A DNA stretch of 64,000 nucleotides from contig JAXGNR010000007.1 of assembly GCA_040767965.1 (NCBI GenBank), positions 1-64,000 on the forward strand. Direction: 5' to 3'. Of the stretch, positions 16,494-33,213 are shown piece by piece. The position numbers and the translations under genes are program-made. Positions within the stretch are counted from its first letter, which is position 1; each line of letters opens with the position of its first letter. The notes below the pieces were generated by a model. That model was not told the origin of the DNA and did not search any database. It saw only the letters and a program-made list of their open reading frames with translations. Origin of the DNA: Atribacterota bacterium. Its GTDB lineage: Bacteria; Atribacterota; Phoenicimicrobiia; Phoenicimicrobiales; Stramentimicrobiaceae.

Positions 16494-18248
16494 TTAAGAT
16501 TGTTTTACAGGTAAAATAATACTCATCCTGGTTCCTACACCAGGCTGACTGTCAACTTTGATCTCCCCTTTATGTAATAATACAATATGCTTAACAATAG
16601 CAAGTCCTAGCCCTGTTCCTCCCTGCTGGCGGGAACGAGATTTATTAACCACATAAAACCTCTCAAATATTCTACTGAGCTCCTCTTTCTTAATCCCAAT
16701 TCCTGTGTCTTCTATTTCAATCAAAACTCTATTTTCTGAACCTGACCGGGCAGATATTTTTATCTCTCCCCTATCTGTATAATGGATAGCATTGTCCAGT
16801 ATATTAATTAACAACTGCTCAATTTGAAATGCGTCTGCTTCAACATCTGGCAGATTTTTTTCAATGTTAACTTTTAATAATAAATTTTTTTCTTTCATCA
16901 CTGGTTCAAATATTTTATGTAAATTCTCAATAATTTCTTTTAAATTAACCATTTCTCTTTCTATTTCTTTTCCTGTCTTACCGGCTTGCTCTTCTATCTT
17001 TGATAACAAAAGAAGATCGTTTACTAAGTTTGTTAAACGATCTGTGTTTCTGCTGATTATTTTAATATATTTTGTTTTACTTTCTTCATCAACTTCTGAT
17101 AAAGTTTCGAGGTAGCCTTTTATGGAAGTCAGCGGGGTTCGTAATTCATGTGAGATATTAGCAATCAATTCTTTTTTCTCTTTATCCAGCCTCTTGGAAC
17201 GGGTAATGTCCTGAAAAACCATAATTAGTTGCTGATTCTTATCAATATACTTTCCTTTGCATAAAAGATCTTTATTCAAAACAGAAGTTTCTTTAATGAA
17301 ATTGCCTTGTTTCCTGTTCAGTAAAAGATTGATTTTCTCATTTAAAGCATTATCCCTGATTACTTCCCAATAATATTTTTCTTTTTCTTTTGATAATGCA
17401 AAATATTCTTTGAAATATTCATTACTTAAAACAATCTGTCCTTTTCTATCCAGTAATGCAATACCATTGGGAATTGTTGACAAAATACTATGCAATTCTG
17501 CGGTTTCAGATAAAATGGTTTTTCTGCTTTCTTTTATTTTCTCCATCATCTGGTTAAAAAGTTCAGTAATTTCATTAAATTCATATTTCCCCTTGGTTAA
17601 CATTATTCTTGCATTCATATCACCTTGAATTACCCGATCAAAAACCTCTTTCAGCTCTAAAAAAGGTAAGTTTATTTTCCTGGAGACATAGTAAGCTGCC
17701 ATAAATCCTAAAAAAAGCAGTATAATGGTAATTAAAATAATAATATTTCTCCAAATGGTTTGCAGATCATTCATTTCTTCTAAAAATATTCCTAACCTTG
17801 AAACCAATAAAACCTGTTCATTATTATAAATTGGATAAGCGAAAAAAAGCATATCCTCTCTTGTAGTGCTGCTATATCGGATAGTATGACTTTCTTCTCC
17901 GGTAAATGCATTTCTGATTTCAGGGCGGTTTTGATGGCTTTCCATATCTTGAAAACCTTTCAATGTTTCGGCTATTACTCTTCCATCAGGTAATATTAGA
18001 GAAATCCTGATCCCTGTACTTTCATAAAGTTCATTCACAATCAGATCTATTTGCGACCAGTTTTCTTCCAGAACTAGCGGTGATATGGTCTGTTCAAGAA
18101 ATGACGATACATTTTTCATATTCTTCAAGGTAATATCCAGATAACTTTGTTTTAGATAATTATTTGAGTAAATCAATATGATTATAGAAAAAATTATAAT
18201 AAGTAAAAAATATCCAAATAAAATCCTTGAAAAGCGTGAATTTATCAT
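16494..18248 (-). CDS. phoR: Sensor histidine kinase PhoR-like (2 TM, HAMP, PAS-like, HisKA, HATPase)
   Basis: SHELRTPLT, NILDNAI, DTGIGI, FERFY, GTGLGL; sits next to the pst operon. Confidence 0.85.
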   Translation of the reverse strand: MINSRFSRILFGYFLLIIIFSIIILIYSNNYLKQSYLDITLKNMKNVSSFLEQTISPLVLEENWSQIDLIVNELYESTGIRISLILPDGRVIAETLKGFQDMESHQNRPEIRNAFTGEESHTIRYSSTTREDMLFFAYPIYNNEQVLLVSRLGIFLEEMNDLQTIWRNIIILITIILLFLGFMAAYYVSRKINLPFLELKEVFDRVIQGDMNARIMLTKGKYEFNEITELFNQMMEKIKESRKTILSETAELHSILSTIPNGIALLDRKGQIVLSNEYFKEYFALSKEKEKYYWEVIRDNALNEKINLLLNRKQGNFIKETSVLNKDLLCKGKYIDKNQQLIMVFQDITRSKRLDKEKKELIANISHELRTPLTSIKGYLETLSEVDEESKTKYIKIISRNTDRLTNLVNDLLLLSKIEEQAGKTGKEIEREMVNLKEIIENLHKIFEPVMKEKNLLLKVNIEKNLPDVEADAFQIEQLLINILDNAIHYTDRGEIKISARSGSENRVLIEIEDTGIGIKKEELSRIFERFYVVNKSRSRQQGGTGLGLAIVKHIVLLHKGEIKVDSQPGVGTRMSIILPVKQS

Positions 18249-18925
18249 GGTTCTATTTTATAACCCAAACCTCTAACATTTTTAATTAAATTCCCCTTTT
18301 TCCCCATTTTACTACGGAGATTTTTGATGTGCACATCAATAGTGCGGTCTAAAATGGCTTTTTCGTTGCCCCACAAATAATCCAGGATCTGTTCACGATT
18401 AAAAACCCATCCCGCTTTTGAAGATAATAATTGTAATATTTTGAATTCTGTAGCAGTAAGCGGAATTTCTTTCTTATTGATTAATAATTGATATTTGTCT
18501 AAGTCTAACAAGAAATCTTCTTCAATAAAAATTTTGTTTCCCTTGGAATCAGTGTTACTTCTTCTTAGAACCGTTCTTACTCTGGCTACCAATTCTTTAG
18601 GAGAAAACGGTTTAGTAATATAATCATCTGCTCCCAACTCTAACCCTAATACTTTATCAGTTTCATCTATTCTTGCAGAAAGTATAATAATAGGTATATT
18701 CACATATTTTTCTTCTTTTTTAAGATATTTACATATCTCAAATCCTCCTTCATCAGGCAACATTAAATCCAAAACAATTAATGAAGGTCTTTTTTGTTCA
18801 AGCTGATGGTAGAGAGATGCAGCATCCGAAAATCCCTGGACTTTAAAATTAGATTTTTCTAAATGAAGAGTGACTAAATCTACAATATCCTGCTCATCAT
18901 CAACGATATAAATCAGCTGTGCCAT
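18245..18925 (-). CDS. phoB: OmpR-family response regulator PhoB/PhoP-like
   Basis: VDDE, DLMLP, GADDYITKPF, RTIDVHI, VRGLGY; overlaps the phoR start by 4 nt. Confidence 0.8.
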   Translation of the reverse strand: MAQLIYIVDDEQDIVDLVTLHLEKSNFKVQGFSDAASLYHQLEQKRPSLIVLDLMLPDEGGFEICKYLKKEEKYVNIPIIILSARIDETDKVLGLELGADDYITKPFSPKELVARVRTVLRRSNTDSKGNKIFIEEDFLLDLDKYQLLINKKEIPLTATEFKILQLLSSKAGWVFNREQILDYLWGNEKAILDRTIDVHIKNLRSKMGKKGNLIKNVRGLGYKIEP

Positions 18926-18976
18926 AGCAATTTAACCTACTCTTTTTTTTATATATATTTTAATTATAAATATTAT

Positions 18977-20659
18977 TTATGAATTTACTATTAATTTTTT
19001 TTGTTTTTCCTTCTTAAAAAGGTTTTTTTCTACAAAAATATTATTACCGGTAAAAGGATCAATTTTTGAATAATACATCACACTGGAATAAGTAGAAGGA
19101 GTAGGAATAAATATTTGTACCTGTTCAGCGGTTAATTTTAGTTCTTTTTGAATAAATTGTTTTAGGACAAACATATCTTTTTCTCTGCAACCCGGGTGAG
19201 CTGCTATAAAATAATAGGTAAGAAACTGTTTTTTCCCGGTTTTTTCATTAATATGGTCAAATAATTTTTTAAAATCACTTACATTGAATTGGCTTGCTTT
19301 ACCCATTAGAGACAAAATACTTTTTTTAATATGCTCTGGAGCAATCTTCATCTGCCCGGAAATATGGTTCTGGATTATTTCTTTAAGATACCCTTTGCCG
19401 TATTGTCTATCAGCTAAAATCAAATCATAACGGATCCCTGAGGCAACAAATACTTTTTTTATTTCTGGTATTTTCCTTATTTTTTGCAGTAATTTTATCT
19501 GCGGTTGATGGCTATGGTTAAGATTAGGACATATCACCGGAAAAAGACATCTTTTGCCGGAACAATGCTGCTTTTTTTGTTTCAGGCAACTCATCTGATA
19601 CATATTGGCCGTAGGTCCTCCTACATCTAAAATGTAACCTTTAAAATCTTTTTCCTGAGTTAGCCTTTTAGCTTCTTTTAAGATAGACTTTTCACTTCGG
19701 GATTGGATTATCCTGCCCTGATGTACAGTAATAGCACAAAAGTTACATTCTCCAAAACATCCTCTATGAGAGGTAATAGAAAACCTGATAGTATCTAAAG
19801 CTCGAACAGCTCCTTGTTTCTTATAATAAGGATGAACATCTCGTTGAAAATCCATTTCATATACTTTATCCAGTTCTTTTTCTCTCAATGGAATTGCCGG
19901 AGGATTATGGGTAAGATATCTGTTATCTTGTTTCTGAACCAGTATTTTCCCCTGAAAAGGGTCCTGATTTTGGTAGAACAAATCGAACATCTTGATAAAT
20001 TTCTTTTTATCTTTTTTTACCTCTGCAAATGATGGCAAAACAAGACTGTTTGCAACTGGAGAGTCTGCAATATAACAGATTCCTTTAATATTGGTGTGAT
20101 CTTTTTCCTTCTCTAAACAATCAGCAAGCTGAATAATGCTTGTTTCTGCCATTCCATAAACTAAAAAATCAGCCTTGCTATCAAATAATATTGATCTTCT
20201 AATCTGATTACTCCAAAAATCATAATGAGCCAGTCTACGCAAACTGGCTTCTATACCACCCAAAACAATTGGTTTAGTATTTTTAAAATATTGTTTAATC
20301 AGATTTGCATAGACAATAGTGGCACGATCAGGACGCTGATTATTTACTCCTCCGGGTGTATAATCATCTTTTTTTCTTTTTTTCCCACTTGCAGTGTAAT
20401 TGGCAATCATAGAATCAACTGACCCTGCTGAAACCCCCCAAAAAAGTCGTGGCTCTCCCAGGCGGCAAATGTCATCAGGTTTTCTGATGTCAGGTTGAGC
20501 TATTATCCCTACTTTATAACCAGCTTCTGTTAGCAATTGCCCTATAACAGACACTCCGATAAACGAACTGTCAATATAAGTATCTCCGCTTACCAGAATA
20601 ATATCCAGATAAGTCCAATTCAATTTTTTAATTTCTTCTTGTGTTGTTGGTAGGAACAT
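18977..20659 (-). CDS. YgiQ family radical SAM protein (UPF0313)
   Basis: MFLPTT, GDTYID, GGIEASLRR, RGCFGECNFC (CxxxCxxC), GGPTANMY, APEH. Confidence 0.9.
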   Translation of the reverse strand: MFLPTTQEEIKKLNWTYLDIILVSGDTYIDSSFIGVSVIGQLLTEAGYKVGIIAQPDIRKPDDICRLGEPRLFWGVSAGSVDSMIANYTASGKKRKKDDYTPGGVNNQRPDRATIVYANLIKQYFKNTKPIVLGGIEASLRRLAHYDFWSNQIRRSILFDSKADFLVYGMAETSIIQLADCLEKEKDHTNIKGICYIADSPVANSLVLPSFAEVKKDKKKFIKMFDLFYQNQDPFQGKILVQKQDNRYLTHNPPAIPLREKELDKVYEMDFQRDVHPYYKKQGAVRALDTIRFSITSHRGCFGECNFCAITVHQGRIIQSRSEKSILKEAKRLTQEKDFKGYILDVGGPTANMYQMSCLKQKKQHCSGKRCLFPVICPNLNHSHQPQIKLLQKIRKIPEIKKVFVASGIRYDLILADRQYGKGYLKEIIQNHISGQMKIAPEHIKKSILSLMGKASQFNVSDFKKLFDHINEKTGKKQFLTYYFIAAHPGCREKDMFVLKQFIQKELKLTAEQVQIFIPTPSTYSSVMYYSKIDPFTGNNIFVEKNLFKKEKQKKLIVNS

Positions 20660-20749
20660 CTTTTCTTCCTTTAGGCAATAGACAGTAAAATAATCAATTT
20701 GAATATATTTATTTTATCATAATAAAGTATTGAATAGTTTTACTATATT

Positions 20750-21532
20750 TCATACAAAACCATACTCAATATCACCCCAGATACCTATCTTGTCATCTTT
20801 TATAATAACAATACCGAAAACACCGGTTATTGCTCTGGCAAGGTTCAGTCCTTTTTCAATGTCTTCTTTGTTTTGTATAATATTACAGATAGCTGTTGCT
20901 GCTGCATCTGCCAGAGATGCACATGGTGACAAAACAGTAACTGAATCGGCTTTACCCATGCTAAAAGATGGTCCAACAGTTCCGGAAGATGTACAGACAC
21001 CAATTCCTTTTTCCCTGCAGTCGATCTTGAGATAAATTTGATTACTGAGAGGAGATGAACCGGCATAGATGATAACTTTTCTTGGGTAGGAACTTTTAAT
21101 ATAAAGATCTCCACCATTTTCAATTATTAAATCAGTTGCATGTTTTAAAAGGCTTTCTCCTACATGTTGGGCAATACAGCCAGCAACAGCAGCCATTGGT
21201 CCTACCTGACAAATCCGGCTTGTTTCAATCATTTTCTGGATCATACTATGTGCTGAAATATCTTTTGGATAAGGCTTTAAAGTGGTGGCAAAGATAGGAT
21301 TATAAGAAATATATGCCTGAAGAATGCTTCTAAAATAACGGAGATAAAATAAAGCTAATCCCGAAAGATCCTTATCAGATTGAACTAATAAGTCACTTTC
21401 ATTCTCCTTCACCTGAAAAGAAATAAGGTCTGGACATTTTATTTTTTCCCTATATCCACGATCAGAATGATCAGGATCAAAGTAGCTTTTAAAATCAGGA
21501 TTAAAACTGTTCATTGCTTCTTTCAGATACAA
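20750..21532 (-). CDS. UPF0280/ApbE-like protein (MA1715-like, sulfide assimilation)
   Basis: ESDL, VGPMAAVAG, ENGGD, CTSSGTVGPSFSMG.AD, ADAAATA. Confidence 0.85.
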   Translation of the reverse strand: MYLKEAMNSFNPDFKSYFDPDHSDRGYREKIKCPDLISFQVKENESDLLVQSDKDLSGLALFYLRYFRSILQAYISYNPIFATTLKPYPKDISAHSMIQKMIETSRICQVGPMAAVAGCIAQHVGESLLKHATDLIIENGGDLYIKSSYPRKVIIYAGSSPLSNQIYLKIDCREKGIGVCTSSGTVGPSFSMGKADSVTVLSPCASLADAAATAICNIIQNKEDIEKGLNLARAITGVFGIVIIKDDKIGIWGDIEYGFV

Positions 21533-21550
21533 ATATTGTTTTATATATTT

Positions 21551-21958
21551 TTAAAATATTATTTCAATAGCCTGAACGGGGCAGGCATCTACACAATAAC
21601 CACATACTACACATTCTTGATAGTTAAATTCAATTTGAAAATTATCTTTATTCATTTTTATCGCGCCTACCGGGCATATTGACACACAGGCTCCACAATT
21701 GTTACATTTTTTGTGATCCCAGGATACTTCTTTATCCAGGAAATCTACTTTCACATTATGTTTATGCAGGTAGGAAAAAGCTTCATCCAGTTTCTTTTTA
21801 TCTCCACGTAATTCAATGACCAGTTTTCCTCCAATTCCTGGCTCGAATTTTGCCTGCAATATATTAATCCATAAATCATATTTCTTTATTAATTTATAAG
21901 TAATTGGTTCTTCTACTGTAGAAGAATCAAAACGCAATACTGCCTTTTTTTTAATCAT
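21551..21958 (-). CDS. NIL domain + 2x[4Fe-4S] ferredoxin (MA1822-like)
   Basis: INILQA NIL motif; CNNCGACVSICP and CVVCGYCVDACP. Confidence 0.88.
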   Translation of the reverse strand: MIKKKAVLRFDSSTVEEPITYKLIKKYDLWINILQAKFEPGIGGKLVIELRGDKKKLDEAFSYLHKHNVKVDFLDKEVSWDHKKCNNCGACVSICPVGAIKMNKDNFQIEFNYQECVVCGYCVDACPVQAIEIIF

Positions 21959-21997
21959 AGTGCCTCCAAATTATTTACTGCTACGCTGTTTTTATAT

Positions 21998-23167
21998 TTA
22001 TTGTATTCTGGTTGTTTTTAAAGGTTTAAAATCCTGTTTGGCAGGAAAATGCTCTATAGGTTCCTGTAAGAAAAATGAACCTGCCAAAATTGACTCCTTC
22101 AATTTTCCGGCAATTATTCTAGCCTTTGCATAACTGGACATTGAAGATGTTGGTATTTTTTTCCCGTTTAATTCTATTTGGCCAGTTCTCAATTGAGCAT
22201 AATTTATTTTCCCCAAAGATGGCTTATCTCTATGCGGAAAACTATAATCAATAATCTCAGTCCATATCTCTTCATCTTTTATACTGACGGCTCTTAACAT
22301 ATCTTCATCTAAAACAGGGATCGGGATTCCAATACCCATAAACAGGGAAACTCCATAGCCTGCAAAATAAGCGGCTTGAACAAAGTTTGGATCCATTTTT
22401 TTCAAATCTCCAACCAGGGCTAAAGTACATCCTTTTCTTATAATTTCATTTTCTTTATTACCCTGGATGAATTGCGGGCTAAACTGAGTCCCTTCCCACG
22501 CAACATAACCTTCAGTTCCGCCCATAAATATTCTTGTTCCTAGCCCTATAGTTCTTAAATCAGGATCGTTCAATAAAGGACTTAACTGTCCGCTAGTACT
22601 ATAACTTGCATTTCCTAAATCAGGTAACAAAATCCCCATATAGGTATAAATCTTTTTATCAGACTGGTTAACTGCTACATTATAATTTTGGTAAGAATTC
22701 CTCGGATTTAACATAAATGCCTGGTTAACAGTTTCTTTTGATATCCAGGCTTCAACTTGCTGGGCAGGATAACAGTCAGTCCCTGAAGATAAAGCTTTTA
22801 ACTTTATCTTCTTTCCTTTTATAAAAGCCTCAATAACATGGGCACCACCATAGCTTTTTTCTAATTCTGATTCTTGGGTAGCCCCTAAATACATATCCAC
22901 AGCAGCAAGACCCGCATAAGCCATCACTCCATTTAGCCAAACTTTTTGCATTCTGATTGGAGGATCACTATGGCCAACATTTAAAAATGCCCCGGAAGAA
23001 CACATAGGTCCGAAAGTTCCGGTAGTTACCACATCTACAATTTCAGCGGCTTTTTTAACCCCTTGTTCTTCTTTTAAAGCAATAACTTCTTCAGCTGTAA
23101 GAACAACAGCTTCCTTACGAGCAATTTTTTCATTTATTTCTTGAAATGTTTTTTTTATTTTCCCCAT
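21998..23167 (-). CDS. Homocysteine biosynthesis protein / aspartate-semialdehyde sulfurtransferase (DUF39, MA1821-like, no CBS domains)
   Basis: EINEKI, VDVVTTGTFGPMCSSG, YGGAHVIE, NPRNSYQNY, GQLSPLLNDP; start moved to ATG 23167 behind AGGAG. Confidence 0.88.
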   Translation of the reverse strand: MGKIKKTFQEINEKIARKEAVVLTAEEVIALKEEQGVKKAAEIVDVVTTGTFGPMCSSGAFLNVGHSDPPIRMQKVWLNGVMAYAGLAAVDMYLGATQESELEKSYGGAHVIEAFIKGKKIKLKALSSGTDCYPAQQVEAWISKETVNQAFMLNPRNSYQNYNVAVNQSDKKIYTYMGILLPDLGNASYSTSGQLSPLLNDPDLRTIGLGTRIFMGGTEGYVAWEGTQFSPQFIQGNKENEIIRKGCTLALVGDLKKMDPNFVQAAYFAGYGVSLFMGIGIPIPVLDEDMLRAVSIKDEEIWTEIIDYSFPHRDKPSLGKINYAQLRTGQIELNGKKIPTSSMSSYAKARIIAGKLKESILAGSFFLQEPIEHFPAKQDFKPLKTTRIQ

Positions 23168-23247
23168 CCAGAATACTCCTTTTGCTACTACACAAGAATA
23201 TATTGCGTAAATATTTCCATAAATACTAAAACTAATCAAAAAAAAAG

Positions 23248-23946
23248 TCAAATTTTTCTAAACTGACAATTTTCAGCCTGACATATTTTGCAGGAATGAC
23301 CTTCTTCCTGAAAAGGTATAACCAGATTATCTCCCAACCCGATTAACCAGGATAATGATTTTTGCGGAATCATCATAAAAGAATCAGTCAGCCTCACACC
23401 TATTTTTTGAGCGGGAATTAATTGAAAGATAATTTCTTGCTGACTAATATCCCAATCAGGAGAGCCTGGACTGAAAAATTTAGTTGTAGATAGATTTTGT
23501 TTTCTAGCTTCCTGACAGACAGTACTATTGAGATAGTTGCGCAAATATTTTGCTGCTACTGTTCCTGCAGCATCAAGGGCTATTGCCCGCGAATATTCAC
23601 CTTTATTAAACAATTCAGCAACCTTATCTTCCAGGACACCTCCAATAGTTACTATTCCTATGATCAAAAACTTAACTCCTTTTAATAATTCCACTATTGA
23701 ACTGTTAAACTCTAAATGCTGCTTTTTGTTGAGAAAAGATATTCTTCCTTCTGGTGATACTTTTTGAACTTCTAATTTATCATAAATCCCCTGAGTATTA
23801 AAATATAAAAATGCATTTTTGATTTCTTCTCTGGTTATATGTAAAATACTTTGCTTTACTTTCTTTTGTTCGGTAACTGGATAACCTTGATACCTTAAAA
23901 CTTCTTTTTCATCTATTTGTATCTCAATATTTTGAAGTATCTTCAT
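23248..23946 (-). CDS. Stand-alone methionine synthase (MetH) AdoMet-dependent reactivation domain protein
   Basis: EVLRYQGY, VTIG..LE, LDAAG, FSPG..DW..Q, IGVRLTDSFMMIPQKS; C-terminal CKICQAENC. Confidence 0.8.
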   Translation of the reverse strand: MKILQNIEIQIDEKEVLRYQGYPVTEQKKVKQSILHITREEIKNAFLYFNTQGIYDKLEVQKVSPEGRISFLNKKQHLEFNSSIVELLKGVKFLIIGIVTIGGVLEDKVAELFNKGEYSRAIALDAAGTVAAKYLRNYLNSTVCQEARKQNLSTTKFFSPGSPDWDISQQEIIFQLIPAQKIGVRLTDSFMMIPQKSLSWLIGLGDNLVIPFQEEGHSCKICQAENCQFRKI

Positions 23947-23987
23947 AGCAATAGACCTTTTTGCTAAAATATTAGTTTAAATAAGTA

Positions 23988-25061
23988 TTATTTAACATTA
24001 ATCGGGTAAATTCCATATTTCTTAACTGTTTCAATCATGGCAATATAATTTTCAATCTGCGCCCATTCTGGTACAGAATTTCCGCTCCCAATGCAATAAC
24101 CCCCTCCAGGAGCAATTATTTTCAGTCTCTGCTTTGTCAATTTTACTATTTCTTCAGTAGTTCCGTTTTGCAATAACTCATTGGAAATATTCCCAAACAA
24201 AGATATCTTATCTCCTATTTTTCTTTTTACCTCTTCTATATCCATACAAGTTGGGTCAATAGGATGAAGAGCATCAATCTTTAAATCAAGAAGATCATCC
24301 ATCAGGTCCCACAAGTACCCGTCTGAATGAAAAAAGAAGAATTTATTATTATCATGACAGATTTTACTAAATTTTTTATACCAAGGAAATATATAATCCC
24401 TAAAAGCTTGAGGTTGAATCATTGGCCCGGTACCAAAAGCCAGATCATCAACTGCCCATATTGCTGCTATGTCAGGTATTTTTATAATTTCTTTTAAAAT
24501 TCCATACTGTAATTCAGCTACTCTTTCAATTAACTGCTGAATGAATTTTGGTTTTAACATTAGATTAATACAAAAATTCTCATAACCCATCAAAAGCCAA
24601 CTCAAGGTAAATATTTTACCGCTAAGGGCAACTATCTTCATTCCAGAGGGAAGCTGCCTCTGGACTTCATAAAAATCTTTGTTAGTGTCTATTTTCCCTA
24701 TTTCTTCCCAGGGAAATAGCTTAAAATCATCTTCATTTTTAATGAAAATCCGTTCTTCAATATTCCAGTTTTGATCTTTTTCATCTTTTCCGGTAAGGCT
24801 TTTTTTTATTACTTTGGAGATTTCTGAATCTTCAGTAACCTTCCCTGGCTGCAAAACTCCAGCAGTTAAAGCGATGTAATCATAACCTGCTTTAATCCAA
24901 AACTCTATTTGAGATGAAAGATCATCTGCTGTCACTTTTTTACCTAAAAATTTACTCATTGTCTGATAGGCTACAGCTGCTTCAGCCAAAGGAACTCTGT
25001 CTGGTTCTTTATGCTGAAGAGTTATTGCAACTCTCTCGAAATTTGGATTGTTATTTAGCAT
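23988..25061 (-). CDS. Uroporphyrinogen decarboxylase (UroD)/MtaA-CmuA fold protein, putative corrinoid methyltransferase
   Basis: EPDRVP, LMGYENF, DDLAFGTGPMI, HSDG, HPIDP, GNI, PGGGYCIGSGNSV; start at 25061 behind GGAGG. Confidence 0.8.
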   Translation of the reverse strand: MLNNNPNFERVAITLQHKEPDRVPLAEAAVAYQTMSKFLGKKVTADDLSSQIEFWIKAGYDYIALTAGVLQPGKVTEDSEISKVIKKSLTGKDEKDQNWNIEERIFIKNEDDFKLFPWEEIGKIDTNKDFYEVQRQLPSGMKIVALSGKIFTLSWLLMGYENFCINLMLKPKFIQQLIERVAELQYGILKEIIKIPDIAAIWAVDDLAFGTGPMIQPQAFRDYIFPWYKKFSKICHDNNKFFFFHSDGYLWDLMDDLLDLKIDALHPIDPTCMDIEEVKRKIGDKISLFGNISNELLQNGTTEEIVKLTKQRLKIIAPGGGYCIGSGNSVPEWAQIENYIAMIETVKKYGIYPINVK

Positions 25062-25156
25062 TAAAACCTCCAGAAAAGTAAAATATTTGAAAAAGAAAGC
25101 ATAAATCAATATTGACTGGTTATAACTTATGTCAATTTTTACTAGAAATTATAATT

Positions 25157-25963
25157 TTAAAAAGTAAGCTTTCCTTGTCTGAAAGCATTTATATATTCAC
25201 TGCAAAAGTTATCTTTTCCTAAAAGTGTCTCAGTAGCCTTAACCAATGCCATTATTTTTTTATCTGTTGAATCAACTATAGCTGCATTCATTCCATTTCC
25301 CATTGCTAAAACCATAAAAGCCTGGTTCAGCAGTTTTCTCTCTGGAAGGCCATATGAAATGTTGCTTAATCCTGTAACAATACCAATCTCCGGATATGAT
25401 TTTTTAATGTTGCTGATTGTGTTTATAGTTATACATCCATTTTTAATGCTAGTACTGATAGGTACTACCAAGGGATCGATATATATTTCAGATAAAGATA
25501 TTCCGATACCTATTAACTTTGCTATTAATTTTTCAGCAACTTCTACTCTGATCTTAAAAGTATCTGAAATTCCCCTATCATCCATAGCAAGGGCTATTAC
25601 TGAACATTTATATTCTTTTATAACTGGCAATAATTGCTCTATTTTTTCCTTTTCTCCGGTAATAGAGTTGATAATAGGTTTTCCTTTATCCCAATTATAA
25701 ACTGCAAGCCCTTTTTCTATTTCTACAGGGTTAGGACTATCAATGCATAAAGGGACGTTTACTGCCTCCTGCACTGTTCTTATAAGCCATTCCATATTTT
25801 CCAGCTTATCACCATTTGCTGCAGAAGAATTTATATCCAAGACATCAGCCCCTCCTGCTACTTGTTTTTTAGCTAATTCCTGAATGTTTTTCACATCCTT
25901 GTTTTCTATCATCTCTTTGACTTTTTTACGGGTTGAATTTATTTTCTCTCCAATAATTAACAT
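25157..25963 (-). CDS. Methyltetrahydrofolate:corrinoid methyltransferase (pterin-binding; AcsE/MetH folate-domain-like)
   Basis: MLIIGEKINSTR, LDIN, PLCIDS, INS, IDPLV, GLSNISYGLP. Confidence 0.9.
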   Translation of the reverse strand: MLIIGEKINSTRKKVKEMIENKDVKNIQELAKKQVAGGADVLDINSSAANGDKLENMEWLIRTVQEAVNVPLCIDSPNPVEIEKGLAVYNWDKGKPIINSITGEKEKIEQLLPVIKEYKCSVIALAMDDRGISDTFKIRVEVAEKLIAKLIGIGISLSEIYIDPLVVPISTSIKNGCITINTISNIKKSYPEIGIVTGLSNISYGLPERKLLNQAFMVLAMGNGMNAAIVDSTDKKIMALVKATETLLGKDNFCSEYINAFRQGKLTF

Positions 25964-26007
25964 TACAAGATCTCCTTTCTACAGTAATAGTTTTCTTAAT
26001 TCTTAAT

Positions 26008-26640
26008 TCAAGTTAAAAATCCTTTTGCAGTATCTACTGCAGAAGCAGCATCAGGAGCATATCCATCAGCACCAATTTCATCAGCATATTTTTTAGTTAT
26101 AGGTGCACCTCCAATCATGACACGTACCTTCTCCCTTAAACCCGCATTTTCTAGAGATTTTATAACTTCAGCCATATTTATCATGGTAGTAGTTAACAGG
26201 GCAGACATACCGACTATATCGGGCTGATATTTCTCCACAGCGTCGATAAATTTTTCTGAAGAAACATCTACTCCTAAATCAATAACTTCAAACCCTGCTC
26301 CTTCTAACATCATGCTTACTAAATTTTTCCCAATGTCATGCAAGTCGCCTTTTACAGTTCCAATTGTCACTTTACCAACATTTTTTACTCCATCTTCTAT
26401 TAATTTTGGTTTTAATATATCCATTCCTAAATGCATTGCCCGAGCAGCAATTAATACTTCAGGAACATAGATTTCATTTTTTTTAAACTTATCTCCAATT
26501 ACACTCATACCGTCAATCAAACCTTTTTCCAATATTTCTTTTGGAGTGATACTTTCTATTAGGGCTTTTTTTATTAAGTCTTCAACTTTTTCAGCATCCC
26601 CTGTCTGTAAAGCTTCAGAAATTAGCTTTAAATCTATCAT
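26008..26640 (-). CDS. Corrinoid (cobalamin-binding) protein with cap + B12-binding domains
   Basis: YVPEVL, GDLHDIGKNLV (DxHxxG), SALLTTT, GGAP; start at 26640 behind GGAGGG. Confidence 0.93.
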   Translation of the reverse strand: MIDLKLISEALQTGDAEKVEDLIKKALIESITPKEILEKGLIDGMSVIGDKFKKNEIYVPEVLIAARAMHLGMDILKPKLIEDGVKNVGKVTIGTVKGDLHDIGKNLVSMMLEGAGFEVIDLGVDVSSEKFIDAVEKYQPDIVGMSALLTTTMINMAEVIKSLENAGLREKVRVMIGGAPITKKYADEIGADGYAPDAASAVDTAKGFLT

Positions 26641-26795
26641 ACAATTCCCTCCTGGTAACAATGGTCTATTTAATTCTATTATCTGTTATATCCAATTTGT
26701 AAAAAACATGCAAAATTATTAATTATTTTAAAAATACTCTTTATACAAAAAAGAGTGGTATTTATCAATAATAACACTTCAAGAGAAAAAATCAA

Positions 26796-26824
26796 TTGAC
26801 AAAAAATATTACAAATGATAGGAT
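26796..26824 (+). promoter_or_regulatory. Putative sigma70 promoter of metF
   Basis: TTGACA-17 nt-TAGGAT with TG extension. Confidence 0.6.
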
Positions 26825-26884
26825 TTTATAAATTTGCACCTTAAATAAGCATTTTGATTATTTTAATTTAGATTGGTTTAAACA

Positions 26885-27751
26885 ATGAATTTACAGGAAA
26901 AATTAAAAAATGGTAAATTTGTTTATACATTAGAACTTGATCCTCCTTTGAATTTAGATATTGAACATTTGCTAATAAAAATAAAAACTTATTTAAATAA
27001 CGCTGATGCTGTAAATATTACAGACTGCCCTTTGGCTTCATTAAGAATGAGTCCAATTGCCCTTTCTCATATAATTCAGGAGCAACTCAATCTGGAAACC
27101 ATCTTTCATATTACCTGTAGAGATCGTAATCTATTGGCTTTAAAGGCAGAATTGTTAGGAGCTCATGCTTTGGGAGTAAAAAACATCCTTGCCCTTTCTG
27201 GCGATCATCCTAAAATGGGAGACCATCCAGAAGCTACTGCTGTTTTCGATGTTGACTCAACAGGATTAGTAAAATTAATCAGAGATCTCAATATGGGTAT
27301 TTTTTCCAAAGATAAAACTTCTGATTATAAAACAAATTTCTTTATTGGCGTTGCTGGCAATCCTGGCACAAAAAACATAGAGAAAGAAATGTTGCGGTTA
27401 GAAGAAAAGATAGCAGCTGGCGCTAATTTCATTCAAACTCAACCTGTATTTGACATAGATATTCTGCATGAATACTTAAAAGCAACAAAGCATTTAAAAA
27501 TCCCGAAAATAATTGGAATAATGCCCTTAAGAAGTAAGAAAATGGTAGATTATATTGATAATAATTTATCACATATACCTATTCCCAAAAAAATCAGAAT
27601 TAGGATGGAAAATAGCGGAATTGAAGAAGGAATAAAAATTGCTCAGGAATTAACCCGTGAAATTGCCTCCAGCACAGAAGTAGCTGGAATTCATTTATTT
27701 CCTATGAACCAATTGCAAATTATCCCTAAACTAATTACAATTAATGCGTAA
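26885..27751 (+). CDS. metF: Methylenetetrahydrofolate reductase
   Basis: ELDPP, NITD, HITCRDRN, LALSGD, GANFIQTQP, GIHL. Confidence 0.88.
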   Translation: MNLQEKLKNGKFVYTLELDPPLNLDIEHLLIKIKTYLNNADAVNITDCPLASLRMSPIALSHIIQEQLNLETIFHITCRDRNLLALKAELLGAHALGVKNILALSGDHPKMGDHPEATAVFDVDSTGLVKLIRDLNMGIFSKDKTSDYKTNFFIGVAGNPGTKNIEKEMLRLEEKIAAGANFIQTQPVFDIDILHEYLKATKHLKIPKIIGIMPLRSKKMVDYIDNNLSHIPIPKKIRIRMENSGIEEGIKIAQELTREIASSTEVAGIHLFPMNQLQIIPKLITINA

Positions 27752-27770
27752 ATTGACTTCTAAAACTGCA

Positions 27771-27828
27771 AAAAAAATATCAGAATTACCTTTTTTTACT
27801 TAATGGTTAAGATAATTCTGATATTTTT
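27771..27828. terminator. Bidirectional terminator between convergent metF and livF
   Basis: AAAAATATCAGAATTA...TAATTCTGATATTTTT inverted repeat flanked by A/T tracts. Confidence 0.7.
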
Positions 27829-27879
27829 GTAATTAAATTAATAATAACAATTATCTTTACTATACTTCTTTGATTTAAA

Positions 27880-28599
27880 TTATCCACCCAGATAGGCAGA
27901 TTGTACTTTGGGATTTTTCATTAACTCTTTTGCATCTCCTTCAAGTTGAACAATACCTGTTTCAAGAACATATGCCCTGTGAGATATTTCTAAAGCTTTA
28001 CGGGCATTCTGTTCAATCAGTAAAACAGTGGTTCCTTCTTTGTTTATTTTTACTATAGATTCAAATACATCCTGTATAAGTATTGGAGCAAGGCCCAAAG
28101 AAGGTTCATCCAACATCAAGAGCTTTGGATGAGCCATAAGCCCTCTGCCTATGGCTAACATTTGCTGTTCACCACCACTTAAACTCCATCCCTGTTGTTT
28201 TATTCTTTCCTGTAAACGAGGGAATAATTTAAAAATATATTCCATATCCTTTTCCATTCGCTCACGTTCTTCAGCAGTTTTTAAGCTTAAAGAACAGGTG
28301 CCAACTTCTAAGTTTTCCTGTACAGTAAAATAGGGAAATATTCTTCTTCCTTCTGGAACCAATGAAACTCCTGCTTCAACTACTAAGTTAGCATCTATAC
28401 CACTTATTTTTTTACCTAAGAATTCAATTTGTCCATTTCTAGGTGTTAATAAACCAGCAATTGTTTTTAAAGTAGTACTTTTCCCTGCTCCATTAGAACC
28501 AACAATACTGACAATCTCTCCTTCGTTAACATGAAAATTAACACCATGTAAAGCTTGGATTTGACCGTAAAATACATCAATATTTTCTACTTTAAGCAT
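27880..28599 (-). CDS. livF: Branched-chain amino acid-type ABC transporter ATPase (LivF-like)
   Basis: GSNGAGKST, VPEGRRIF, LSGGEQQMLA, DEPSLGLAP. Confidence 0.9.
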   Translation of the reverse strand: MLKVENIDVFYGQIQALHGVNFHVNEGEIVSIVGSNGAGKSTTLKTIAGLLTPRNGQIEFLGKKISGIDANLVVEAGVSLVPEGRRIFPYFTVQENLEVGTCSLSLKTAEERERMEKDMEYIFKLFPRLQERIKQQGWSLSGGEQQMLAIGRGLMAHPKLLMLDEPSLGLAPILIQDVFESIVKINKEGTTVLLIEQNARKALEISHRAYVLETGIVQLEGDAKELMKNPKVQSAYLGG

Positions 28600-29371
28600 T
28601 TATTGTTGCCTCCTCACCCAGGTAGGCTTCTATTACTTTTTTATTGCTTTTTATTTCATCAGGAGTACCTTCTGCTATTTTTTCTCCAAAATTTAAAGCA
28701 CTTATTTTATCACATAAACCCATAACCACTTTCATATCATGCTCTATTATAAACACGGTTATACCTTCTTCCCGTATCTTTCTGGCAACTCCAACCATTC
28801 TTTCCTTTTCAGTAGGATTCATGCCGGCTACCGGTTCGTCCAGCATAATAATTTTTGGTTGAGTGGCAAGTGCCCGTGCTATCTCTATAAGTCTTTGCCC
28901 ACCATGATCAAGTCCACCAGCTAAAATATCTGGCTTCCCTTTGAAACCAACAAAATCTATCCATTTTCTCGCTTCAGACTCCATCCTTTTTTCTTCTTCG
29001 AGTACTGGGGGAACACAGGTAAGAGCACCTAATAAACCTGATTTTGTCCTGCAATGCATTCCCAGCATTACATTTTGCAATATAGACATTTGACCAAAAA
29101 GTCTGGATTTTTGAAAAGTTCTAGCAATTCCTAAATCGGCCAGCACATGAGGCCTTGCATTTTTGTTAATTGGTTTTCCTTCCAAATAGATTTCACCTTC
29201 AGTTGGATAATAAATACCAGTTACAAGATTAACAAATGTAGTCTTACCAGAACCATTTGGCCCTATAAGACCTCTTATTTCACCTTTCTCAATAACCATG
29301 TCAACTTTGTTGACCGCCGTAAGGCCACCAAATTTTTTTGTAAGCTGTTTAGTTTCTAGCAAGGTTGCCAT
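28592..29371 (-). CDS. livG: Branched-chain amino acid-type ABC transporter ATPase (LivG-like)
   Basis: FGGLTAV, GPNGSGKTT, GIARTFQ, EHDM, VIEAYLG. Confidence 0.9.
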   Translation of the reverse strand: MATLLETKQLTKKFGGLTAVNKVDMVIEKGEIRGLIGPNGSGKTTFVNLVTGIYYPTEGEIYLEGKPINKNARPHVLADLGIARTFQKSRLFGQMSILQNVMLGMHCRTKSGLLGALTCVPPVLEEEKRMESEARKWIDFVGFKGKPDILAGGLDHGGQRLIEIARALATQPKIIMLDEPVAGMNPTEKERMVGVARKIREEGITVFIIEHDMKVVMGLCDKISALNFGEKIAEGTPDEIKSNKKVIEAYLGEEATINA

Positions 29372-29409
29372 TTTTTGCCTATACCCTCCTTTAAATTGTT
29401 TTTTAATTA

Positions 29410-30354
29410 TTATTTCTTAGCAGAGCTCCGAGAAAAATTGGAAAATTTACTCTTAAATAATCCAACTATTCCCGTAGGCATCTTAATAGCAATTATTACA
29501 ACTGCTAAACCATAAATTGCTATATAATAATTTTTCAGAAATCTTAGCCATTCCGGTAAAACCACCAATAAAGACGCTCCGATAACAGGTCCCCAGGTCG
29601 TGCCAGAACCTCCAAGAATTAACATACAAATTGTAGTAAATGATTGCTGACTTAAAAAATTATCAGGACTAATATACCCAACAAAATGAGCCAATGCACT
29701 TCCGGCAAGTGCAGCTACAAATGAGCTTAAGGCAAATGAAAGCACTTTGTAATATCTTGTATTGACCCCCATAGCTTCGGCAGCAAGTTCATTGTCCCGA
29801 ATTGCCTGAATAGCTCTTCCAACTCGTGAATTCTTTATTTTTTCAAACATATATAAAACAATTAAAAAGATAACCATTATTACATAATATTTACTTAAAT
29901 TTGAACTAAAAACCCATGGGCCGATACTAGGAGCAGGTATACCAGGCAAACCATCTGCACCTCTGGTTACCGGAATCCAGTTATTCAATACCAGGTTCAC
30001 AATCTGTCCAAAACCCAGAGTAGTAATAGCCAGATAAAAGCCTTTCAGCTTTAAACTTGGTATCCCCAGTAAAACTCCTATAATCAAACCAAAAATTCCT
30101 GCCCCAAGAACTGCTAATGGGAAAGGCACATTAAGGCGTATCACAAGCAAGGATGATACATAGGCTCCTATTCCCCAGAAAGCTGCATGGGCTAAAGAGA
30201 TTTGGCCACACAGCCCCATTAAAAAGTTTAAGCCAATTGCCAGTATTGAAAATATACCAGCCATGGTAAGAACATATCTATGATAAGGGCTTTGTATTAA
30301 AAGTGGTAATACTATTATCACAACTATAACTATAAGCCAGTGTTTTAAACGCAT
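29410..30354 (-). CDS. livM: ABC transporter permease (LivM-like)
   Basis: GQISLAHAAF, YLAITTLGF, AIRDNELAA, LPEWLR. Confidence 0.88.
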   Translation of the reverse strand: MRLKHWLIVIVVIIVLPLLIQSPYHRYVLTMAGIFSILAIGLNFLMGLCGQISLAHAAFWGIGAYVSSLLVIRLNVPFPLAVLGAGIFGLIIGVLLGIPSLKLKGFYLAITTLGFGQIVNLVLNNWIPVTRGADGLPGIPAPSIGPWVFSSNLSKYYVIMVIFLIVLYMFEKIKNSRVGRAIQAIRDNELAAEAMGVNTRYYKVLSFALSSFVAALAGSALAHFVGYISPDNFLSQQSFTTICMLILGGSGTTWGPVIGASLLVVLPEWLRFLKNYYIAIYGLAVVIIAIKMPTGIVGLFKSKFSNFSRSSAKK

Positions 30355-30380
30355 AATATAAACTCCTTCTTCCTTATTCT

Positions 30381-31265
30381 TTAAGCTTTCTCGCCAACTT
30401 CTCTAGTACCCATAAGTCCAAATGGTCTTATAACAAGAATTACAATAAGAAATATAAATGCCCATGCATCACGATATGAAGATGATATAAAAAATGCAGC
30501 ATAAATCTCTACTAATCCGACCAATAGACCACCCACTACTACTCCGTAAACCCTGGAGCCAAATCCACCTATAACTCCAGCAGCAACTGATTTCAGCATT
30601 ATATTAGACATTCCTGTTGATACAAAAAAGATAGGGCTACATAGGATACCAGCGAATGTTCCTAGAATAGTACTAACAGCAAAGGTAATTCTGATAGTAT
30701 TACGAACTCTAATTCCCATTAAGGTTGAGGTTTCCTTGTCCTGACCAACAGCTCTCATCATTAATCCTAATCTCGTTCTGGTAAGTAGCATATGAAGAAG
30801 GAAAAGGACAATCATGACTCCACCAATTATAACAAGATTTTGAGTATCAAGTATTATTGAACCTCTTCTAATCATTGCAGTTTTGATAAATCTGGGTACC
30901 ATGTATGGAAGTTTACCCCAAATAAACTGCACAAATTCTACCATGAAAATACTGGTGCCTATAGCAGCAATAAGAAAGAATCTTGGATTAGCAAATCTAA
31001 GAGGTTCATATACTAGAAAACCAAAAATTGCTCCAACTATTCCCATGACTATTATTGCAATCGTATAACCAATTACACTAGGAAAATTTATCATCGAGGT
31101 AAAGGTAACTCCAAAATAGGCACCTAACATAACTAATCCGCCTTGGGCAAAGTTTAAACCGCCCGTTGCGTTGTAAATTAAGTTAATACCTAATGCAACC
31201 AGGCCGTATATACAGCCCATTGCTAAGCCAGTAACGGTAAGTTGAACTAAGGTTCCTACATTCAC
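30381..31265 (-). CDS. livH: ABC transporter permease (LivH-like)
   Basis: YGLVALG, NFAQG, GLMMRAV, IGGFGS, RPFGL; GTG start. Confidence 0.88.
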   Translation of the reverse strand: MNVGTLVQLTVTGLAMGCIYGLVALGINLIYNATGGLNFAQGGLVMLGAYFGVTFTSMINFPSVIGYTIAIIVMGIVGAIFGFLVYEPLRFANPRFFLIAAIGTSIFMVEFVQFIWGKLPYMVPRFIKTAMIRRGSIILDTQNLVIIGGVMIVLFLLHMLLTRTRLGLMMRAVGQDKETSTLMGIRVRNTIRITFAVSTILGTFAGILCSPIFFVSTGMSNIMLKSVAAGVIGGFGSRVYGVVVGGLLVGLVEIYAAFFISSSYRDAWAFIFLIVILVIRPFGLMGTREVGEKA

Positions 31266-31357
31266 TTCTTTTTCGCCTCCTGTTATTTAAAAATATTATT
31301 AAAATTATACAGAATATATTATATATTAAATATAGTAAAATGAATACAAAAAAGTTG

Positions 31358-31412
31358 TTTTTTGAAGATAAGGAAATTCCTTATAAAATATTTATCCCTT
31401 ATCTTCAAAAAA
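31358..31412 (-). terminator. Hairpin after the substrate-binding protein gene
   Basis: TTTTTTGAAGATAAGG...CCTTATCTTCAAAAAA inverted repeat. Confidence 0.65.
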
Positions 31413-31425
31413 TTATGTTAATTGC

Positions 31426-32637: not shown

Positions 32638-33087
32638 TTACTATTTCTCCTTTTTTTCTATTACTACAAATGCGTAAAAATACTACAAATGTTACTGTAA
32701 ATAATCTTCTTAAAATTATAAAAACAACACAATTAACAAGACTTTTTTCTAGTTTCTTATTATTTTTTTAAACATTTAAATATTTCTGAACATCACCTCC
32801 TATTCTATAAGAATCAGGTGTAAATATTTTATGAATATTAGTTCATATTTTTATTTTAACACCTTTTTTAGGTAATTCATTTGGAAATATAAAGAAATAC
32901 TTCTTTGAATTTATGTTTGATAAGTATTGTTGTTTTCCGATTATTCTTTTAAGCAATTTATAAAGGTAGCCTCAATTAAGATATTGAAAAAATAAAGATA
33001 AAGTACTGTAAACTAAGAAAATAATTTTGGTCATTTAATTACCAAAGAACTTATCCGCAACATTTTATTATTTAGTAACATGTTTTT

Positions 33088-33116
33088 ATGATACAGATTT
33101 AAAAATATTATGTCAA
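33088..33116 (-). promoter_or_regulatory. Putative sigma70 promoter about 450 nt upstream of the ABC operon
   Basis: TTGACA-17 nt-TATCAT on the minus strand. Confidence 0.6.
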
Positions 33117-33213
33117 TCTTGTTTTTTTACTATTCAACCTGTTTTGTACCACTTAAAATACAAAAATATAAGCCAAAAATACTAAGAATTTATTTAAAAT
33201 TACCATGAAAAAA

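Follow-up and report, generated by a model that had tools for sequence, protein, structure and literature searches.

A UroD-fold candidate methyltransferase gene inserted among the genes of a predicted five-part split methionine synthase in Atribacterota

The stretch of DNA analyzed here, referred to as the window, comprises 64,000 nucleotides (G000:C7:1-64000, where G, C and L designate genomes, contigs and loci, and G000 is the window genome) from an Atribacterota genome of 2.33 Mb and 98% completeness. Its closest named relative is 'Ca. Oleincola secundus', which is assigned to the Atribacterota in PMC11227167. The subject of this report is a group of genes for B12-dependent methionine synthesis in the window, among which lies a gene for a protein of the UroD fold. 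Open reading frames and profile matches define, at 20750-27751, a tight minus-strand run of seven genes with a divergent metF, an arrangement that had been described in an earlier note on this DNA and is borne out. The genes of the run and their immediate neighbors are as follows.

26885-27751, plus strand: metF, methylenetetrahydrofolate reductase (MTHFR; PF02219, 143.8 bits; NF006396, 294.5 bits over the MTHFR half of the model)
26008-26661, minus strand: corrinoid protein (CoP) with B12 cap and B12-binding domains (PF02607, 79.7 bits; PF02310, 107.4 bits)
25157-25963, minus strand: pterin-binding methyltetrahydrofolate (CH3-THF):corrinoid methyltransferase (MeTr, or MT2; PF00809, 95.8 bits; NF005719, 342.8 bits, cut-off 259)
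23988-25061, minus strand (TTG alternative start at 25109): UroD-fold protein, proposed as an MT1, a methyltransferase that demethylates an outside substrate (PF01208, 82.3 bits)
23248-23946, minus strand: MetH-activation-like protein (Act), TM0269-like (PF02965, 26.6 bits, cut-off 25)
21998-23251, minus strand: DUF39/HcyBio, sulfur-incorporating homocysteine synthesis protein (PF01837, 492.9 bits)
21551-21958, minus strand: NIL-ferredoxin (NIL-Fer), the DUF39 partner (PF09383, 59 bits; two Fer4 domains, 59.6 bits)
20750-21532, minus strand: UPF0280/COG2122-type protein, third component of the DUF39 pathway (NF003323, PRK04334, 270.9 bits, cut-off 271)
18977-20659, minus strand: YgiQ-family radical S-adenosylmethionine (SAM) protein, the downstream neighbor (TIGR03904, 814.2 bits)
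27880-32637, minus strand: Liv-type (HAAT family) ABC operon LivK-H-M-G-F, its end convergent with metF

The seven co-directional genes, which follow one another from CoP to the UPF0280-type gene in the order given, are separated by no more than a 4-bp overlap to 95 bp and therefore form an operon-like unit. The protein encoded at 20750-21532 has no match in Pfam, and its family, NF003323/PRK04334, is one that we take to be UPF0280/COG2122. The same divergent position of metF is seen in the metagenome loci L167-L169, and the junctions Act/UroD and UroD/MeTr/CoP are bridged by independent landfill and digester metagenome assemblies, with the caveat that bridging records 5 and 6 come from run X1, possibly the source sample. 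Profile matches also uphold the description of three MetH modules (CoP, MeTr, and Act) as separate genes joined to those for DUF39, NIL-Fer, and COG2122 and to metF. The roles of DUF39, NIL-Fer, and COG2122 in homocysteine synthesis are those reported by Price et al. (2018, PMC5764234).

The homocysteine (Hcy)-binding module, the part of MetH that is missing from this run, is encoded at a second locus. A search of the whole genome with PF02574 returned a single match (C7:157173-158012, 266 bits), located outside the window, such that the cluster itself indeed contains no PF02574 or PF01717 gene, as had been noted; PF01717 has no match in the genome as a whole. The PF02574 gene (C7:157161-158075) is a stand-alone gene for a protein of 304 aa on the same contig, ~130 kb from the cluster, and it ends 38 bp before the gene for a 625-aa reductive activase with Fer2 and RACo domains, the two together spanning C7:155245-158075. 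The best solved match of the protein is the Hcy domain of Thermotoga maritima MetH (1q7m, 219 bits), as compared with 89.6 bits for 5dml, a homocysteine methyltransferase of the type dependent on SAM or S-methylmethionine (SMM), and ~79 bits for betaine-homocysteine methyltransferase, and the zinc cysteines in GANCG and GGCCG are kept. In a survey of 86 Atribacterota genomes, 43 of them high-quality, PF02574 occurs in 71 of the 86 and in 39 of the 43, mostly in frames of ~300-340 aa. Thirty of these loci were examined with a flank of ±1.5 kb each: RACo adjoins in 10, Act in three, and a MetF-Hcy-MeTr-CoP fusion or run is present in two, while the longer loci L143, L149, and L150 show runs of the Hcy methyltransferase, RACo, and Act. 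With PF02574, PF00809, the cap plus B12-binding protein carrying DxHxxG, Act, and RACo all detected, the genome is predicted to encode a B12-dependent methionine synthase as five separate genes at two loci, and the linkage of the modules in relatives supports the proposal that they would act jointly to make methionine. The two loci with a MetF-Hcy-MeTr-CoP run, L115 (G061:C25) and L121 (G056:C12), belong to a sister family; the products of their open frames of 1074-1138 aa share only 28-35% identity with those of the window. These loci have the look of a fused MetF-MetH-like gene that exists in the phylum alongside the split system.

The remaining modules are represented sparingly in the genome. 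MeTr is the product of its single PF00809 gene, and genome-wide searches found one RACo and one Act. PF02310 gave five matches in the whole genome, among which the window CoP is the sole one in a methyl-transfer context. In alignment A2, its D106-x-H108-x-x-G111 (DxHxxG), SxL, and GG motifs are invariant. The nearest NCBIfam models for CoP are MtgC and pyl_corrinoid, both below cut-off; it scores 240.8 bits with MtgC as against 145.6 with MetH, and MeTr scores 342.8 bits with PRK07535 as against 146.4 with MetH. The Act family profile matches 1j6r, the stand-alone activation protein of T. maritima, at 44.2 bits (E 1.4e-10), and Act is found in 51 of the 86 phylum genomes. In alignment A3, of Atribacterota TM0269-like proteins, C219, C222, and C227 are invariant and compose a C-terminal CxxCx4C; located beyond the 1j6r-aligned part, which ends near residue 202, C219-x2-C222-x4-C227 may constitute a metal or Fe-S site. 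One other PF02310 gene also has a cap domain, and its context is one of GGDEF/PAS-HD signaling genes. Its 390-aa product (G000:C7:172065-173237; L163 6066-7238, minus strand) combines B12 cap and B12-binding domains with an N-terminal ~190 aa lacking any assignment; flanked by GGDEF and PAS-GAF-HD genes, it could be a sensor based on B12 and not a carrier of methyl groups.

The distribution of the UroD gene within the phylum is very different from that of the Hcy module. Orthologs are present in two of the 86 genomes, G000 and G075 (86% identity), and among the matches listed all others are at most 36% identical over partial alignments. In G066 (L146), the order is CoP-MTHFR-like-EtfB-EtfA-MeTr-Act-DUF39-NILFer-COG2122-YgiQ, with MeTr directly adjoining Act, and a different UroD paralog (23% identity) lies upstream of the cluster together with a PocR/AraC regulator. 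The G072 locus (L148) reads RACo-Act-DUF39-NILFer-COG2122-YgiQ, placing RACo at the UroD position, and in a second family, four genomes show DUF39-NILFer-COG2122-CoP-MeTr-MetF-Act, as far as their contigs extend, again without a UroD gene. What is conserved, then, is a core of CoP-MeTr-Act together with the genes for homocysteine, the Hcy module residing at another locus. Because relatives keep this cluster without the UroD gene, the latter is a lineage-specific addition that the cluster can dispense with. Two further features of these loci deserve mention. Between CoP and MeTr, L146 (5511-8157) carries EtfB and EtfA behind a divergent gene that is MTHFR-like (PF02219, 50 bits); these genes recur in L168 and L169 and may specify an Etf-linked methylene-THF reductase that oxidizes methyl groups; the window has a CoP-MeTr gap of 44 bp without them. 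A YgiQ gene directly follows DUF39-NILFer-COG2122 in three Atribacterota genera (the window, L146 12564-14252, and L148 3854-5536).

Phylogeny points to the origin of the added gene. In a tree of 110 rows (IQ-TREE quick mode, LG+G4), the window UroD protein groups with that of Oleincola (SH-aLRT 100) within a 39-row clade (SH-aLRT 99) drawn from Thermodesulfobacteriota, Chloroflexota, Acidobacteriota, Bacillota, Nitrospirota, Zixibacteria, Spirochaetota, and others, its nearest sequence being from a Bacillota metagenome-assembled genome, and 19 other Atribacterota UroD paralogs form a separate clade (SH-aLRT 100). The window CoP shares 72-75% identity with its counterparts in Atribacterota relatives, compared with only 46-56% for the CoPs that accompany UroD orthologs elsewhere; it follows that the UroD gene arrived without a CoP of its own. 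To judge from the tree and these identities, the UroD gene is a horizontally acquired one and the CoP the vertically inherited Atribacterota protein.

Translation of the UroD protein probably begins with the ATG at 25061, for a length of 357 aa, as in all homologs. In Pfam, PF01208 alone is matched at E ≤ 0.001, over residues 149-365 only, with no match to PF01717, and no MetE-type model was matched in NCBIfam; MtaA/CmuA-type NCBIfam models fall far below their cut-offs (NF004889, 63.6 against 244 bits; TIGR01463, 46.6 against 235.4). The best solved relatives are CdmB (9rui, 40.8 bits) and MtaA (4ay7, 23.3 bits). Relatives at E ≤ 0.001 number 872 from at least nine phyla, and the best 120 of these 872 are 54-100% identical. 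Within the family, H245, D247, H266, D269, and C272 are invariant and C323 nearly so. An invariant HSD(G) occupies the position at which HxC is expected and aligns with the HIC zinc motif of 4ay7, an equivalence of metal ligands drawn solely from that sequence alignment. The HxCxnC zinc motif of MtaA-type methyltransferases is not kept, nor is the MetE/Mes ligand set of His, Cys, Glu/Asp, and Cys matched, the second putative ligand being Asp247. Reading frames are intact and dN/dS is 0.04-0.06 relative to 86%-identical copies, values by which the gene is to be considered functional and under strong purifying selection. A protein atlas lists the UroD protein under 'URO-D domain-containing' clusters only, with no functional lead. 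A second gene of the superfamily in the genome (G000:C4:767087-768094; L162 9088-10095, minus strand; 335 aa; PF01208, 85 bits) is nearest to MtbA/MtaA models, and has H-x-H and GPGCC motifs; its surroundings comprise LUD-domain, formamidase, and GDPD genes and lack any corrinoid gene.

Outside the phylum, the orthologs keep different company. The ortholog clade was sampled at 35 loci (18 of at least 15 kb), 34 of them from other phyla and the last, L003, from Oleincola, the close relative within the Atribacterota, whose 2.7-kb contig stops at the UroD gene and for that reason cannot show the genes downstream. Gene content was scored by relaxed tblastn, with a stricter run also made. CoP is present at 21 of the 35 loci, usually directly downstream, MeTr at 10, RACo at five, and an Act-like fragment at two; in the relaxed search, DUF39, NIL-Fer, COG2122, MetF, PF02574, and YgiQ were each found at none. 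Clusters of recurrent neighbors include TRAP DctPQM (seven loci), DUF1638 (seven), MFS (five), and Liv-type ABC transporters (five), together with sigma54-PAS activators (five), GntR-FCD regulators (four), and an amidohydrolase with a metallo-beta-lactamase-type protein (four). The arrangement at L170 is illustrative: a sigma54 regulator, MeTr, DUF1638, a UroD paralog, CoP, TRAP, the UroD ortholog, CoP, and another URO-D gene. Such loci have the layout of donor-specific MT1-CoP-MT2 systems and not of methionine biosynthesis.

The genomes that hold these orthologs were also searched for methionine synthases. PF02574 is present in 19 of the 34 genomes outside the phylum, in six of them within MetH frames of 1191-1309 aa, and 15 of the 34, mostly Desulfobacterota, have neither PF02574 nor PF01717. 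MesB is reported as the sole methionine synthase in Desulfatiglans, Desulfarculus, Desulfatibacillum, and others (Price et al., 2021, PMC7857596), and the PF01717 search matched none of 41 Desulfatiglandales genomes (G090 and 40 others). A negative result with PF01717 in an order where MesB is reported cannot exclude MesB-type enzymes, to which this model seems blind; the apparent gap in the 15 genomes is accordingly unsafe as an argument and was dropped, and it is read as the probable result of MesB enzymes that PF01717 misses.

Attempts to name the methyl donor from context were abandoned, as the neighbors of orthologs and distant homologs are too mixed. Orthologs and distant homologs additionally adjoin genes for glycerate kinase/CdaR, a rhamnose-mutarotase-like protein, an amidase, and sugar-acid enzymes, contexts that hint at an organic-acid or sugar-like donor. 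The idea that the Liv-type ABC operon was transferred together with the UroD gene was likewise rejected, its proteins being at most 39% identical to the transporters beside orthologs of other phyla. Among 45 loci of distant homologs (L038-L082, 33-42% identity), CoP is found at 13; homologs of this kind in Acidobacteriota, Armatimonadota, Verrucomicrobiota, Sumerlaeota, and Chloroflexota lie beside MR/MLE, SDR, GFO/IDH/MocA, SIS, and PfkB genes, and the protein atlas lists fusions of LacI/periplasmic-binding domains with the UroD fold. These associations are hints that part of this superfamily branch may act on carbohydrate-like substrates. Among the papers listed in a literature search, to judge by titles and the openings of abstracts, nothing ties corrinoid O-demethylases to methylated sugars, and P450s are the sole carbohydrate demethylases represented.

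Control elements and transcripts contribute little. Scanned with Rfam at E ≤ 1, the region 18000-33500 yielded one chance snoRNA match and no SAM or B12 riboswitch or T-box by which leader control would tie the operon to methionine. In the MeTr-UroD gap, a promoter-like TTGACA-16-AATATT lies at 25135-25108 on the minus strand, preceded by a hairpin at 25168-25186; such a site would accord with independent initiation of transcription ahead of the inserted UroD gene and with the ATG at 25061. In the promoter and terminator scan, the counts of such sites did not exceed those in shuffled sequence, and the 25135-25108 site is not counted as evidence. RNA data are sparse: of two runs labeled as RNA, X19 is probably DNA, and in X20, the true metatranscriptome, clean contigs cover the COG2122 and DUF39 genes only. 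The missing coverage of the UroD gene is therefore uninformative.

From gene content, distribution, synteny, and phylogeny we infer a scheme for each catalytic step, the direction of methyl transfer, and the kind of substrate. MetF would make CH3-THF, with which MeTr would methylate Co(I)-CoP, and the PF02574 protein would pass the CoP methyl group to homocysteine made by DUF39, NIL-Fer, and COG2122. RACo, in an ATP-dependent manner, and/or the TM0269-like Act would rescue Co(II) to Co(I). The UroD protein would serve as an MT1 that moves a methyl group from an imported methylated compound to the same CoP, and from there the group could proceed to the THF/C1 (one-carbon) pool by reversal of MeTr or straight to homocysteine. 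Since the genome has a single CoP for methyl transfer, the UroD protein would have to share it with methionine synthesis. Formyltetrahydrofolate synthetase (FTHFS) and MetF are present, by way of which the methyl group could enter the C1 pool; acetyl-CoA synthase was not found in the window genome. The explanation that we judge probable, with considerable room for doubt, combines a MetH split into five parts with a UroD methyltransferase of the MT1 type, acquired horizontally, that would load the shared CoP. The narrower proposal that this MT1, of an uncharacterized clade, feeds methyl groups directly into methionine through the shared CoP and bypasses folate has about an even chance of being correct. 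The earlier note had entertained an MT1 that demethylates an outside substrate as its alternative, and this has become the better supported reading, the catalytic activity itself being predicted from the gene's context.

Several observations weigh against an MT1 assignment. In a narrow lineage (L166-L169, L172, and L003; 77-100% identity, with metagenome loci at 100, 85-88, and 77%), the UroD gene always lies between MeTr and Act-DUF39, and so stable a tie to methionine genes would be expected of a biosynthetic role too. PF02574 was not detected in G075, the other phylum genome with an ortholog, which is 85% complete, and the 15 genomes described above lack both PF02574 and PF01717. The invariant His/Asp/His(Asp)/Cys at the zinc positions of MtaA could serve thiol chemistry, and the MT1 CdmB is described as having no metal (PMC13222342). 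No methyl-donor transporter or regulator in the window could be linked to the UroD gene, and the catabolic MTHFR-like/EtfBA genes of relatives are absent from it.

The principal proposal of the earlier note was that the UroD protein transfers methyl groups from the corrinoid to homocysteine in place of the Hcy module, constituting a new type of core methionine synthase. This proposal is not supported, because the module thought to be missing is encoded elsewhere in the genome. Of the three kinds of observation named beforehand as speaking against it, two were made: an Hcy-binding MetH-type domain, intact and beside RACo, in the same genome (and in 71 of 86 in the phylum), and ortholog loci of which 0 of 35 have a methionine or homocysteine gene, transporters and regulators being found there instead. 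Relatives run the methionine cluster without the UroD gene, whose orthologs occur in two of 86 genomes and coexist with full-length MetH in six genomes of other phyla. The position of the gene between MeTr and Act-DUF39 in close relatives (77-88% identity), the lack of PF02574 in G075, and the placement of H245-x-D247, H266/D269, and C323 at the zinc-ligand positions of MtaA, MetE, and MesB remain in its favor, as does a +2/+21 spacing equal to that of H215, C217, and D236 in MesB (PMC7005905); predicted MesC synthases, moreover, also lack the second Cys and have HxH instead (PMC7857596). However, HxCxnC, which PMC7005905 describes as essential for Hcy activation, is not found in the protein, and no PF01717 or MetE-type model matches it, only MtaA/CmuA-type models far below cut-off. 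A new synthase type that replaces or parallels the Hcy module of MetH is consequently very improbable, and the more specific form, a methylcobamide:homocysteine methyltransferase with a His/Asp/His/Cys metal site working in parallel with the PF02574 module, is about as improbable. The nearest NCBIfam models, which describe methylcobamide:coenzyme M methyltransferases, and the putative metal site at the MtaA zinc positions would also suit an MT2-type enzyme that carries the methyl group of CH3-CoP to an acceptor other than homocysteine. Candidates are small thiols, sulfide, and selenide, in line with what has been suggested for the MtaA-like Mlp proteins of anaerobes. Bacterial MtaA-like clusters with CoP and RACE and no clear methyl-donor enzyme have been described by Kountz and Balskus (PMC10418091). 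Scores of 63.6 against 244 bits and HxD in place of HxC speak against such an assignment, and the importers (TRAP, MFS, and ABC) and regulators beside UroD-CoP pairs with MeTr have the layout of a donor-to-THF system. The genome contains no other MT1 that could supply a non-folate methyl group, and this possibility is unlikely, if less so than a new synthase.

Two other accounts dispense with the coupling of the UroD protein to methionine synthesis altogether. A corrinoid-independent enzyme, a decarboxylase or another enzyme of sugar-like compounds or organic acids, might have entered the operon by an accident of insertion. Such an enzyme would be in keeping with the presence of CoP at only 13 of the 45 distant loci, the sugar-acid-type enzymes (MR/MLE dehydratase, SDR, GFO/IDH/MocA, SIS, and PfkB) near distant homologs, and the LacI/periplasmic-binding fusions with the same fold. 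In the ortholog clade itself, however, CoP accompanies the gene at 21 of 35 loci, mostly directly downstream, with MeTr, RACo, and DUF1638 as further neighbors, and the gene is held between MeTr and Act under strong purifying selection, rendering an accidental insertion quite improbable. Alternatively, CoP, MeTr, and UroD could compose a purely catabolic demethylase, with the PF02574 protein an unrelated SAM- or SMM-dependent Hcy methyltransferase. The higher scores of CoP and MeTr with MtgC (240.8 bits) and PRK07535 (342.8 bits) than with MetH (145.6 and 146.4 bits) are consistent with a catabolic system, and stand-alone PF02574 proteins of ~300 aa do include the MmuM/YagD type (5dml is among the matches). 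At 219 bits, however, the PF02574 protein matches the Hcy domain of MetH far better than it does 5dml (89.6 bits), and genes of this family are linked to RACo and/or Act at 13 of 30 loci and fused with or next to MeTr-CoP at two. The second Atribacterota family also combines CoP-MeTr-MetF-Act with homocysteine genes and has no MT1 in the locus, and PF02574 and PF01717 searches found no other methionine synthase in the genome. A division into two unrelated systems is, on this evidence, highly improbable.

The proposed combination of a split MetH with an MT1 that shares its CoP has precedents for each of its parts. Split MetH itself is already known: in Phaeobacter inhibens, PF02574, PF00809, and cap plus B12 proteins are likewise described as separate genes, accompanied by an ATP-dependent activase of the RamA/RACo type (Price et al., 2018, PMC5764234), and homocysteine production from DUF39, NIL/Fer, and COG2122 is described there for Desulfovibrio. 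The window genome, that of an anaerobic member of the Atribacterota, differs from P. inhibens in having a TM0269-like, PF02965-type Act in addition to RACo, in the distribution of its modules over two loci, one in an operon with the DUF39 pathway, and in the UroD-fold methyltransferase candidate inside that operon. The sharing of one core by demethylation and methionine synthesis, as proposed here, has been described for MtgBCDE of Ruegeria pomeroyi, in which the CoP MtgC and the bidirectional MeTr MtgD serve both the MT1 MtgB and the PF02574 protein MtgE (Mausz et al., 2025, PMC12478193). MtgB, by that account, is a glycine betaine methyltransferase of aerobes from the MttB/pfam06253 family, whereas the candidate MT1 of the window is of the UroD superfamily, and the sharing of CoP is deduced from gene counts. 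A UroD-type MT1 in a methionine operon is, in this sense, a variant of the MtgBCDE idea in an anaerobe.

The superfamily offers comparisons of varying closeness. As described in PMC13222342, it contains O-demethylase and haloalkane MT1s and many uncharacterized clades, and CdmB (chloromethane), MtvB, OdmB, and VdmB likewise pair a UroD-fold barrel with a CoP and a pterin-type MT2 activated by RACE/RACo. The corresponding grouping of an MT1-superfamily gene with CoP and MT2 is found in the window, where MeTr and Act flank the UroD gene and CoP is two genes away. Similarity to CdmB is, however, weak and confined to the C-terminal ~140 residues, and the window family has invariant His/Asp/His/Cys residues where CdmB has no metal ligands. 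The MesA-D and core-MetE enzymes (Price et al., 2021, PMC7857596; Deobald et al., 2020, PMC7005905) are also single barrels of the UroD/MetE clan, ~340 aa in length; MesA-D take their methyl group from a corrinoid, and the +2/+21 ligand spacing of MesB resembles the putative one of the window family. Unlike Mes proteins, the window family lacks a PF01717 or MetE-type match, has HxD for HxC, and is not restricted to Wood-Ljungdahl organisms; its members co-occur with full-length MetH and are linked to methionine genes in one narrow lineage only. MtaA, MtbA, and MtsA and the bacterial Mlp proteins, as presented in PMC10418091, belong to the same superfamily, supply the nearest NCBIfam models, and share CoP and RACE-type neighbors, but the window protein reaches only 63.6 of the 244 bits required and does not keep the HxCxnC zinc motif.

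For the Atribacterota, a phylum dominated by uncultured members, this genome provides a worked example of a predicted five-gene split MetH tied to the DUF39 homocysteine pathway, one that helps pathway callers avoid false calls of methionine auxotrophy. The analysis also flags a large, conserved, and uncharacterized clade of putative UroD-superfamily corrinoid methyltransferases, with 872 relatives and an HxD...H...C site, whose donor is worth finding. Finally, the gene arrangement suggests that a substrate-specific methyltransferase and methionine synthesis may share one CoP and one MeTr in an anaerobe, a form of sharing that has been shown genetically only for MtgBCDE of aerobic marine bacteria.

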